From positions 33,976,001 to 34,040,000 of the forward strand of contig OX597817.1 in NCBI GenBank assembly GCA_951406725.2: a DNA stretch of 64,000 nt, read 5' to 3'. This DNA comes from Octopus vulgaris (taxonomy: Eukaryota). The notes beneath the pieces are model-generated. The model was not told where the DNA came from and ran no database searches. It saw only the letters and a list, made by a program, of their open reading frames with translations. The position numbers and the translations under genes were made by a program. Shown piece after piece: positions 54,442 to 60,505 of the stretch; within the stretch, counting starts at the first letter, position 1; each line of letters begins with the position of its first letter.

Positions 54442-55012
54442 TCACATCATATTTCTTTCCATTTATATTATGCTTACAAAATTTGTAATGGGCCAAATGA
54501 ATATTTCTTTCAAATTTCCCTAATCAATTTTCATAAAAAGAAAGTTTCGTCTCAGAGGTTCCAAAAATTAGTAGCTTAACCATTTAGCATTTAAACTGGC
54601 CTTATCTGATCCCAGTATTTTCCCTGTTTTTTTTTTTTTTGAGAATCTCTAATAATTCACCAAATCCACTGCCATAACTTCAATGGTATATTATGGTCCT
54701 GTAGGTAGAATTATCTTGATATATGTTATTAAATAAATGAGCAAAGAGAATATTAAGAATATGCTCTACTTGTTGGAAGTATGTTCTACAATTCCAGCCT
54801 GTTTGGAAGCTGCTGCTTTTTCTTTTGTCATTTCCTGTTAATTGAGATTAATATAGGAAAATATAATAATTGATAATTAATGATGTATCCCTTGTTATAA
54901 AGTTACTGAAACTTAATATATATATTGAAAATTGAAGTGTACTGAATAAACATACTTGAATATTAATTGTATATTACATACAGTTAATGTATTTTATAAC
55001 GTGAACTTTTAA

Positions 55013-55490
55013 GCTAGCTCCTACTGAGGGCTAATTGGGCCTGCAGCCCCAAACTTAAGGGAGCTAAATAGCATAACTATAATTCGTCTATAATGACTAT
55101 ATGCCCCGGTGGTGTTTGATCAGAGGTTAAGGATGGATGAGAAGAGAATTAATTCTGTGATGCAGTCATTCTCTTGTTCTAGTCCCAAGTTGAATTCCAA
55201 CTGTTAAGCAAATTTGCCCTAAAGTTCTTATAGACGTAAAATTAACGAAGCAAATGTCATTTATATCTCCCCCTTGATCTCTGACGTCATCTGACAAACA
55301 CCACCAAATTGGTAAATCAGCCATGCTTTACCTGCTAGAAGTAGCAACCCAAATGCTTTTAAATCAGATCCCAATGCTGGATGTTCAAGAACCAAATGAA
55401 GGGCAAATTTTCAATCCCAGGATCATTCCAGTTCCAAAGAGGTATATGTCTATGTAGAGAAAATGTAGGCCCAGGAGTCCCAGATGGACA
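55013..55490 (+). ncRNA. Candidate large structured RNA with three kissing-loop helices, class unknown
   Basis: About ten local stems plus loop-loop pairings 55035-44/55465-74, 55085-93/55228-36 and 55210-20/55400-10. G-U pairs favour the + strand. Confidence 0.6.
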
Positions 55491-56007
55491 GGCAGACTTT
55501 CACTTTTATTATTATAAATTGTTAATTTATTACTCATAGTTTCTTTACTTTGGAACCTCTGAGACAAAACTTCTTTACTTTATATATCACTTATGTCTGC
55601 CATATCCACTAACTTTTTAAAACTTATATTGCATTTTGAGAACAATAGCATCATTGGTTGTAAGATTTACTATAGACCAGTCACTAATTCAATGTATTTA
55701 TGATCATGGGAGTGGCAAGGAAGCGTCTGTGTAACTCGTGTAACAAATACCACACAAGGTCTTTTTGTTTGAAATAGTTGGGTTTTCTATTATCTAGCTG
55801 ATATTTTTCATTGAAGTTTATGGGTGAAAGGACATGCAATGTATGCACATGATAGTCTTCCTGATACCTTACTGCATTCACAGAACTGGTTAACCTTGGC
55901 TATTTGTAAAACACACTTACCAAAGGTGCATCACTGTGGAATTGAACTTGGCTCTAAGTGGATTTGAAACGAACTTCTTAGCTCATCTGAAATCATCATT
56001 GGTTACA

Positions 56008-60285: not shown

Positions 60286-60505
60286 GGAGTAAACACATAA
60301 ATGTGAAACAAGGTGGAAAAAAGAGTACTCAAATACAAGTGGTAGAGTAATATGCTTTATTTAAAGCAGCAGAAAATTCAACAAAACCTGTTACTCTGAG
60401 TTTCACGTTCCTGTTCATCGGACAGTAGCAAAAACTGTCCGACGAACGTGAAACTCAGAGTAACAGGTTTTGTTGAATTTTCTGCTGCTTTAAATAAAGT
60501 ATATA
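60284..60505. mobile_element. Family G palindromic Penelope-derived element with two inverted hammerhead-like motifs
   Basis: ~60-bp near-perfect inverted arms; CCGAUGA/CCGACGA ... GAAACUCAGAGUA on both strands. Confidence 0.7.

Follow-up and report, generated by a model that had tools for sequence, protein, structure and literature searches.

Helitrons such as Helraiser and Helibat have 5′-TC and CTAG-3′ ends and a subterminal hairpin, and they insert at A|T targets without duplication and with an AT-rich 3′ flank (PMC4778049). The family described here shares these features. It differs from the Helitrons described there in that its subterminal hairpin forms part of a longer palindrome, and the copy at our locus lacks the 3′ end and carries an antisense fold that its siblings lack. 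Transposon fragments have also been proposed to act through RNA secondary structure in non-coding transcripts, as RIDLs (PMC4114693); there, Alu brings its own fold, whereas at our locus a single copy gained most of its perfect helices after it had inserted, and the host lncRNA is hypothetical. Recent evolution, a single locus, a pseudoknotted fold and a scarcity of informative homologs also characterise the hovlinc ribozyme (PMC12016570). Unlike our segment, it is 168 nt long, has two pseudoknots and proven self-cleavage, and we found no sequence likeness to it through Rfam; the analogy would cover recent origin only. Large RNAs with long-range contacts, for which the term 'kissing loop' is used, are known in ROOL, GOLLD and OLE (10.1101/2024.12.08.627333) and resemble an earlier suggestion, made from our sequence alone, that the RNA could multimerise through its loops. 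Those RNAs are bacterial and have solved structures, whereas our segment has no Rfam match and its multimer is purely hypothetical.

RNA stems are known to arise by template switching (PMC8794818, PMC5453318, PMC7954356), in which mutation clusters are replaced by the perfect reverse complement of a partner (PMC8794818, PMC5453318). Our locus shows clusters of this kind, although the rRNA study required source and target to lie within 8 bp (PMC8794818, PMC5453318) and here the candidate templates lie ~150-1,000 nt away. We tentatively propose, at somewhat less than an even chance, that a ~480-nt pseudoknotted RNA, now within a 1-kb fold, is arising de novo in one transposon copy, with long-range template switching writing the changes, selection keeping them, and about a thousand sister copies preserving the ancestral sequence and so serving as an internal control. 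The origin of large pseudoknotted RNAs from unfolded sequence is difficult to investigate, since the ancestral sequence has usually disappeared. In this family it is readable from hundreds of sister copies and each change is datable against related species, which would allow a direct comparison by probing of ancestral, intermediate and present forms. Searches of the open-access literature turned up no report of the element, nor of any fold that had formed within one copy of a Helitron.

Helitron origin and direction of change

The window is the whole 64,000-nt stretch of DNA that was analysed, and positions 55000-55518 on its minus strand are one copy (the window copy) of a non-autonomous Helitron family with a unit of ~547 bp and ~800-1,600 copies in the window's own 2.8-Gb genome. 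A genome search with the segment returned 1,569 candidate places; the best 40 were scored, at 81-85% identity, with the window itself among them and the 39 others matching most or all of the query. A conserved family 19-mer had 157 exact genome occurrences and was present in 15 of 78 siblings, which suggests ~800 family copies. The sibling set came from 101 loci, which gave 79 distinct copies once 7 duplicates and 15 partial ones were left out. The segment is Helitron in origin: the sequence-only reading had called it unrecognised, and the whole of it lies inside a dispersed repeat with Helitron ends.

Among the siblings with a recognisable 5′ end (78 examined), 31/37 began with TC and 25/37 showed A|TC. 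This end is present in the window copy, with TC changed to TT at 55518-17 (context A|TT). CTAG|T closed 35 of the 50 siblings with a recognisable 3′ end (78 examined); here the window copy is missing ~21 bp, and with them the second arm of the terminal hairpin and CTAG. Folded as DNA, the family-majority 3′ end is predicted to form a hairpin of -18.3 kcal/mol, in which a 6-bp GC-rich stem is extended by 12 bp. Target-site duplications were absent: in each of the 22 copies that retain both ends, the flanks overlapped by 0-3 nt. The 12 loci recovered with the 3′-end motif all matched the short family, whole or in part. Coding Helitrons, candidates for an autonomous RepHel partner, were abundant in the genome by Helitron_like_N matches (150 of 1,172 candidates scored).

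Elsewhere in the genome, many Helitron Rep domains occurred in long open frames of up to 1,744 aa (for example at C5:109429133 and C2:110867221); several scored identically, which suggests young, possibly active autonomous Helitrons. One sibling copy (L007) abuts, beyond its 5′ end, the apparent CTAG end of a different Helitron family, and a large-subunit rRNA fragment adjoins another (L122:1-1099). Within the family majority, the stretch equivalent to 55285-55315 contains a CRE-like palindrome and a YY1-like motif. Their presence in siblings suggests a captured promoter piece, and the window copy no longer has an intact YY1-like motif.

The window copy differs from the family majority by 46 substitutions, compared with a mean of 47.8 in 64 full-length siblings, and by 7 indels, compared with a sibling mean of 2.7 and a maximum of 7. 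Its CpG decay equals that of the siblings (5/13 kept; sibling mean 5.1), and tandem duplication accounts for the insertions it carries at 55139 and 55262. Because of the CpG decay, these duplications and the ortholog state at 55430 described below, the family state is ancestral and the window state derived. If the order were reversed, an old structured RNA gene would have been captured by a Helitron and the family would be its decayed, amplified copy. Most helices are indeed present in imperfect form (mismatches, wobbles) in the family majority, and Helitrons capture flanking DNA by read-through (PMC4778049). The window copy nevertheless has a Helitron 5′ end, its CpGs decayed at the siblings' rate, its two insertions are tandem duplications and its orthologs keep the family letter at 55430, and we consider the reversed order very improbable. 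A young subfamily with the same fold was ruled out, as the best match to the window-specific core reached 88%.

Predicted fold and its stability

Table 1. Coordinates of the predicted RNA domain, its helices and the inverted repeat around it
Feature	Position in window	Strand	Remarks
Upstream arm of 24-bp inverted repeat	54542..54565	+	Encloses domain
Downstream arm (55549-72)	55541..55581	+	Between 11-nt direct repeats 55541-51 and 55571-81
Predicted structured RNA domain	55013..55493	+	Antisense to Helitron
Outer closing stem, 5′ strand	55024..55044	+	Pairs with 55465-55483; pair probability 0.99-1.0
Outer closing stem, 3′ strand	55465..55483	+	6-nt deletion at 55472 also in organisms B and C
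Inner rod strand	55083..55107	+	Pairs with 55439-55461; excludes hairpin P2 and K2
P3 domain	55108..55305	+	Encloses hairpins 55142-75, 55188-202 and 55203-46
Pseudoknot helix K3	55210..55220 / 55400..55410	+	11 perfect bp
K2 strand	55228..55238	+	K2 is 55085-93/55228-36; alternative partner 55445-54
Hairpins P6 (55311-32), P7 (55333-46), P8 (55376-81/55427-32)	55311..55432	+	

The 12 local helices and three long-range complements proposed from the sequence alone were found at the positions given and pair as described, and the 'at least six' G-U pairs counted there number exactly 6. That skeleton scores -80.6, plus -54.2 for kiss stacking, before any pseudoknot cost. The nested minimum, at -141.0, is instead a rod (55024-44/55465-83, 55083-107/55439-61) around the P3 domain. 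The three long-range complements had been read as kissing-loop helices. K3 survives as a strong predicted pseudoknot, the sole one accepted at a penalty of 7 kcal, while the set of three loop-loop kisses does not: the first (55035-44/55465-74) is better read within the nested closing stem, with a probability of 0.99, and the second, K2, and the inner rod are mutually exclusive. A hybrid fold combines K3 and the closing stem with the P2 hairpin, K2 and one more helix (55262-69/55439-46), and scores -143.5 against -147.3 for the rod at a penalty of 7, and -155.5 against -151.3 at a penalty of 3. The similar energies of rod and P2/K2 hybrid would permit switching between folds. In the predicted fold, then, a long rod closes off a core of several hairpins, and one or more pseudoknots are present.

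Many of these helices trace to changes private to the window copy. The ~20-bp closing stem was completed by four changes (55025 G>T, 55471 T>C, the 6-nt deletion at 55472 and 55476 G>A), and 55084 A>T and 55460 C>A jointly make one U-A pair in the inner rod. Of the two P3 stems, the 11 bp of 55108-18/55295-305 were perfected in the window copy and are fully paired in 0/78 siblings, and the 13 bp of 55120-32/55272-84 are ancestral and fully paired in 28/78. K3 carries 3 changes on its first strand and 1 on its second and is fully paired in 1/78 siblings, as is K2; hairpin 55142-75, which like K3 changed on both strands, is fully paired in 0/78. These sibling counts are descriptive, the helices having been defined on the window copy.

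As plus-strand RNA, the domain is predicted to fold at -137.8 kcal/mol (z -5.0), and none of 100 shuffles did as well. Minus-strand RNA gave a z of -1.1, and the two strands folded as DNA gave -1.5 and -1.4. In these models the stability is specific to the RNA form of the plus strand, antisense to the Helitron, in agreement with the strand-specific RNA-type fold that the sequence-only reading had proposed. The window copy is also a predicted outlier among its siblings. With 8 shuffles each, its nested z was -5.4, and 29 siblings ranged from -2.5 to +1.3; after correction for composition, it was -4.5 against -0.45 ± 1.07 in 78 siblings (best -2.54). When pseudoknots were allowed at a penalty of 7 kcal, the window copy reached -147.3 and the siblings -115.3 ± 8.6 (best -137.7). 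Reverting its 35 private changes singly had a summed cost of +33.0 kcal/mol, compared with -23 to +18 in 19 siblings. The window copy contains perfect helices of 11, 11, 9 and 8 bp. A transposon consensus, which by the sequence-only reading would refute its proposal if it explained the whole segment, accounts for the origin of the sequence and leaves the fold unexplained. The family majority folds at a z of about -1.3 with no perfect helix of at least 8 bp.

The fold did not match an Rfam family. The sequence-only reading had seen no motifs of RNase P/MRP, 7SK, telomerase RNA, introns or small ribozymes, and a search of Rfam, IRES families included, bore this out, with nothing above noise: the sole overlapping hit at permissive thresholds had an E of 9.8 and 14.8 bits against a cut-off of 60. 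In five sibling loci, Rfam likewise gave no family for the element. The hammerhead and retrozyme core, CUGANGA, matched once in the 3,017 bases scanned, at a site that is not part of the element. A tRNA-headed SINE was ruled out, as the window contains no tRNA, and a phage origin was rejected, as phage records gave only noise of 27-35 nt. Internal TTTT runs at 55357-60 and 55408-11 make a polymerase III gene unlikely. Telomerase RNA is also unlikely under the template-length rule for such RNAs, as the sole CCCUAA (55216-21) is 6 nt long and lies within K3.

Chance, templating and the enclosing repeat

A fold of this kind could be a chance extreme, that is, one neutrally decaying copy out of about a thousand, with latent complementarity, that was picked for folding well. 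The sequence-only reading did pick the segment from very many windows. The nested energy of the window copy was reached by 1/508 neutral mosaics, so energy alone is attainable by the best of about a thousand copies, and with pseudoknots at a penalty of 4 kcal, of the 14 pre-selected simulations that ranked best, one exceeded the window copy and 2 came close. Helix-stacking sums were just 2-2.5 SD above those of siblings and near that of the family majority. Blind per-change tests of helix improvement were not significant, either for indels (window copy 1/7; siblings 15/149) or for substitutions (10/28; 117/541 in 22 siblings), because such sequence offers a helix of -10 kcal almost anywhere. 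The gain fraction was 0.69 against 0.55 ± 0.08 (maximum 0.77; not significant), and the window copy was not separable from its siblings by greedy helix gain fraction, improved-pair counts or clustering of changes. Its divergence and CpG decay are sibling-like, and matches below 12-13 bp are often due to chance (PMC5453318).

Against chance stands the combination of features. The score of the perfect helices of 11, 11, 9 and 8 bp was reached in 17/72,608 mosaic and 7/72,354 point-mutation simulations, and jointly with a z of at most -4.4 in 2/110,142 neutral simulations, of which the 327 with a helix score of at least 8 were folded. This joint rarity corresponds to ~0.02-0.03 expected in the family, before allowing for thresholds that were chosen after seeing the window. 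The 24-bp inverted repeat that encloses the domain is, in addition, an independent rare feature, found afterwards. We rate a chance origin as unlikely; were it true, it would serve as a warning that a folding z of -5 together with loop complements can occur in transposon copies.

The arms of this enclosing repeat are complementary at 23/24 positions, with one mismatch left uncorrected, and the 17-mer core has two sites in the genome, both of them the arms, and no others. The 30 nt at 55541-70 are absent in organisms B and C, and with the direct repeats that flank them they are probably a templated insertion, to judge from the sequence. Across 323 kb of unmasked DNA, in which masking was incomplete, we found 27 inverted pairs of at least 20 bp; no sibling copy lies inside any of them, and a spacer above 500 nt occurs in only one other short pair. 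Between the upstream arm and the Helitron copy sits a 55-bp piece (54576-54630) of another dispersed repeat, with 115 candidate places at 81-91% identity. Also in unmasked DNA, a 61-nt inverted repeat at 60350-60504 (98% complementary; 33-nt spacer) is possibly a template-switch hairpin or a small MITE.

Within the domain, the 11 nt of 55228-38 are exactly the reverse complement of 55083-93 as it stands in the family. The match arose by a 2-nt deletion and one change, a template-switch footprint, and K2 has since lost the pair at 55084. Mutation clusters lay under perfect 11-nt reverse complements in 2/7 cases in the window copy, compared with 3/346 in 64 siblings. Distances to the candidate templates are ~150, 190, 430 and 1,000 nt; two of these templates cross main stems. 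The locus contains reverse-complement footprints at a range of 150-1,000 nt.

Such footprints could come from a neutral hotspot of templated mutation, with the fold as a by-product that has no RNA function. Single-stranded DNA would fold during repair or replication, and the polymerase would switch to the reverse-complement partner and copy it, each event lengthening the complementarity and inviting the next. The outer repeat fits this well, since the 24-bp arm and the 11-nt flanking duplication, missing in B and C, would amount to a clear templated copy across ~1 kb. That K2 equals the ancestral state of its partner and then lost the 55084 pair, that the mismatch in the outer repeat stayed uncorrected and that overall divergence is neutral also favor this reading, and inverted repeats are known to become perfect through template switching (PMC5453318, PMC8794818). 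However, siblings share the latent complements and show few footprints (3/346 clusters), and the DNA itself does not fold unusually well. For K3, changes were required at each end and in each strand, and P8 appears to have advanced stepwise through a wobble. In a fly assay, moreover, the templates used in snap-back repair lay no farther than ~30 bp from the break (PMC5728401), not 150-1,000 nt. We regard the neutral hotspot as fairly unlikely on this balance; if it is correct, one locus has undergone repeated templating over 150-1,000 nt, far beyond the cited ranges.

Orthologs, transcription and a possible role

Four of 24 listed sequencing runs were compared with the locus. In organisms B and C, contigs run from the unique flanks into the element at either end, at ~2% divergence, and share with the window copy the deletions at 55444 and 55472. 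These shared flank junctions and deletions indicate that the locus is natural and older than the split of these organisms, and an artefact or planted sequence was ruled out, as B and C come from independent runs with unique flanks and private alleles. The ortholog sequence covers ~240 of the 480 nt of the element; among the contigs listed for runs X2 and X3, no ortholog piece falls in 55115-55397, and run X9 gave no flank cover at 89%. One X3 contig that skips 55316-59 could be a paralog or the ortholog.

Orthologs differed at 3-4 positions in ~240 nt of the element, a rate no lower than the 11 in ~570 nt of flank, and with so few differences constraint could not be demonstrated. Contig-end distances and depth totals allowed two of the differences to be assigned probable positions, 55044 T and 55430 G, and both keep pairing as U-G. 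At 55430, B and C keep the family G (U-G wobble) and the window copy has U-A, a state that reads as a stepwise route through a wobble in P8. Double-sided covariation was not seen between species in the ~240 nt covered in B and C.

Our preferred explanation is a domesticated Helitron-derived RNA fold, kept by selection and built partly by long-range template switching, a reading that we place just below an even chance. A 3′-truncated, immobilised Helitron copy would have been transcribed antisense at a low level. The latent complementarity of the family sequence would then have been perfected stepwise by point changes, template-switch jumps in register with the fold would have added reverse complements, and selection would have retained these changes since the folded RNA was useful. 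Plus-strand transcription, selection and function are what we infer. Selection is open to doubt because 1/508 mosaics reach the energy, the per-change tests are null and divergence looks neutral. If the preferred explanation holds, the most likely role would be that of a stabilising or protein-binding domain, in line with proposals for lncRNA domains of transposon origin (PMC4114693). The transcript would be a polymerase II product at low abundance, either non-coding or deep-intronic, and a small ribozyme would be disfavored.

None of the listed runs is recorded as RNA, a point given no weight here. A possible sign of transcription came from run X7, which we guess to be RNA and in which two unstranded contigs are identical to 55207-55354 and leave the unique flanks uncovered. 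The run was found because it carries words of the element, and other family copies also occur in it, which makes these contigs a weak hint. A metagenome scan for a private 22-mer gave 0 matches. The sequence-only reading had placed the RNA in an intron of a candidate host transcript; we found no host gene and no exon in the window or in the 120 kb rightward of it. None of 150 ORFs in the window passed the Pfam cut-off, and among 32 further candidates, only exons of alanyl-tRNA synthetase matched, searches from which small exons may escape. This gene, the nearest found, lies ~105 kb to the left on the minus strand and points away from the element. Its exons are in L119-L120 (G000:C4:33906001-33926000), where 4 of the 5 candidates tested matched PF01411.
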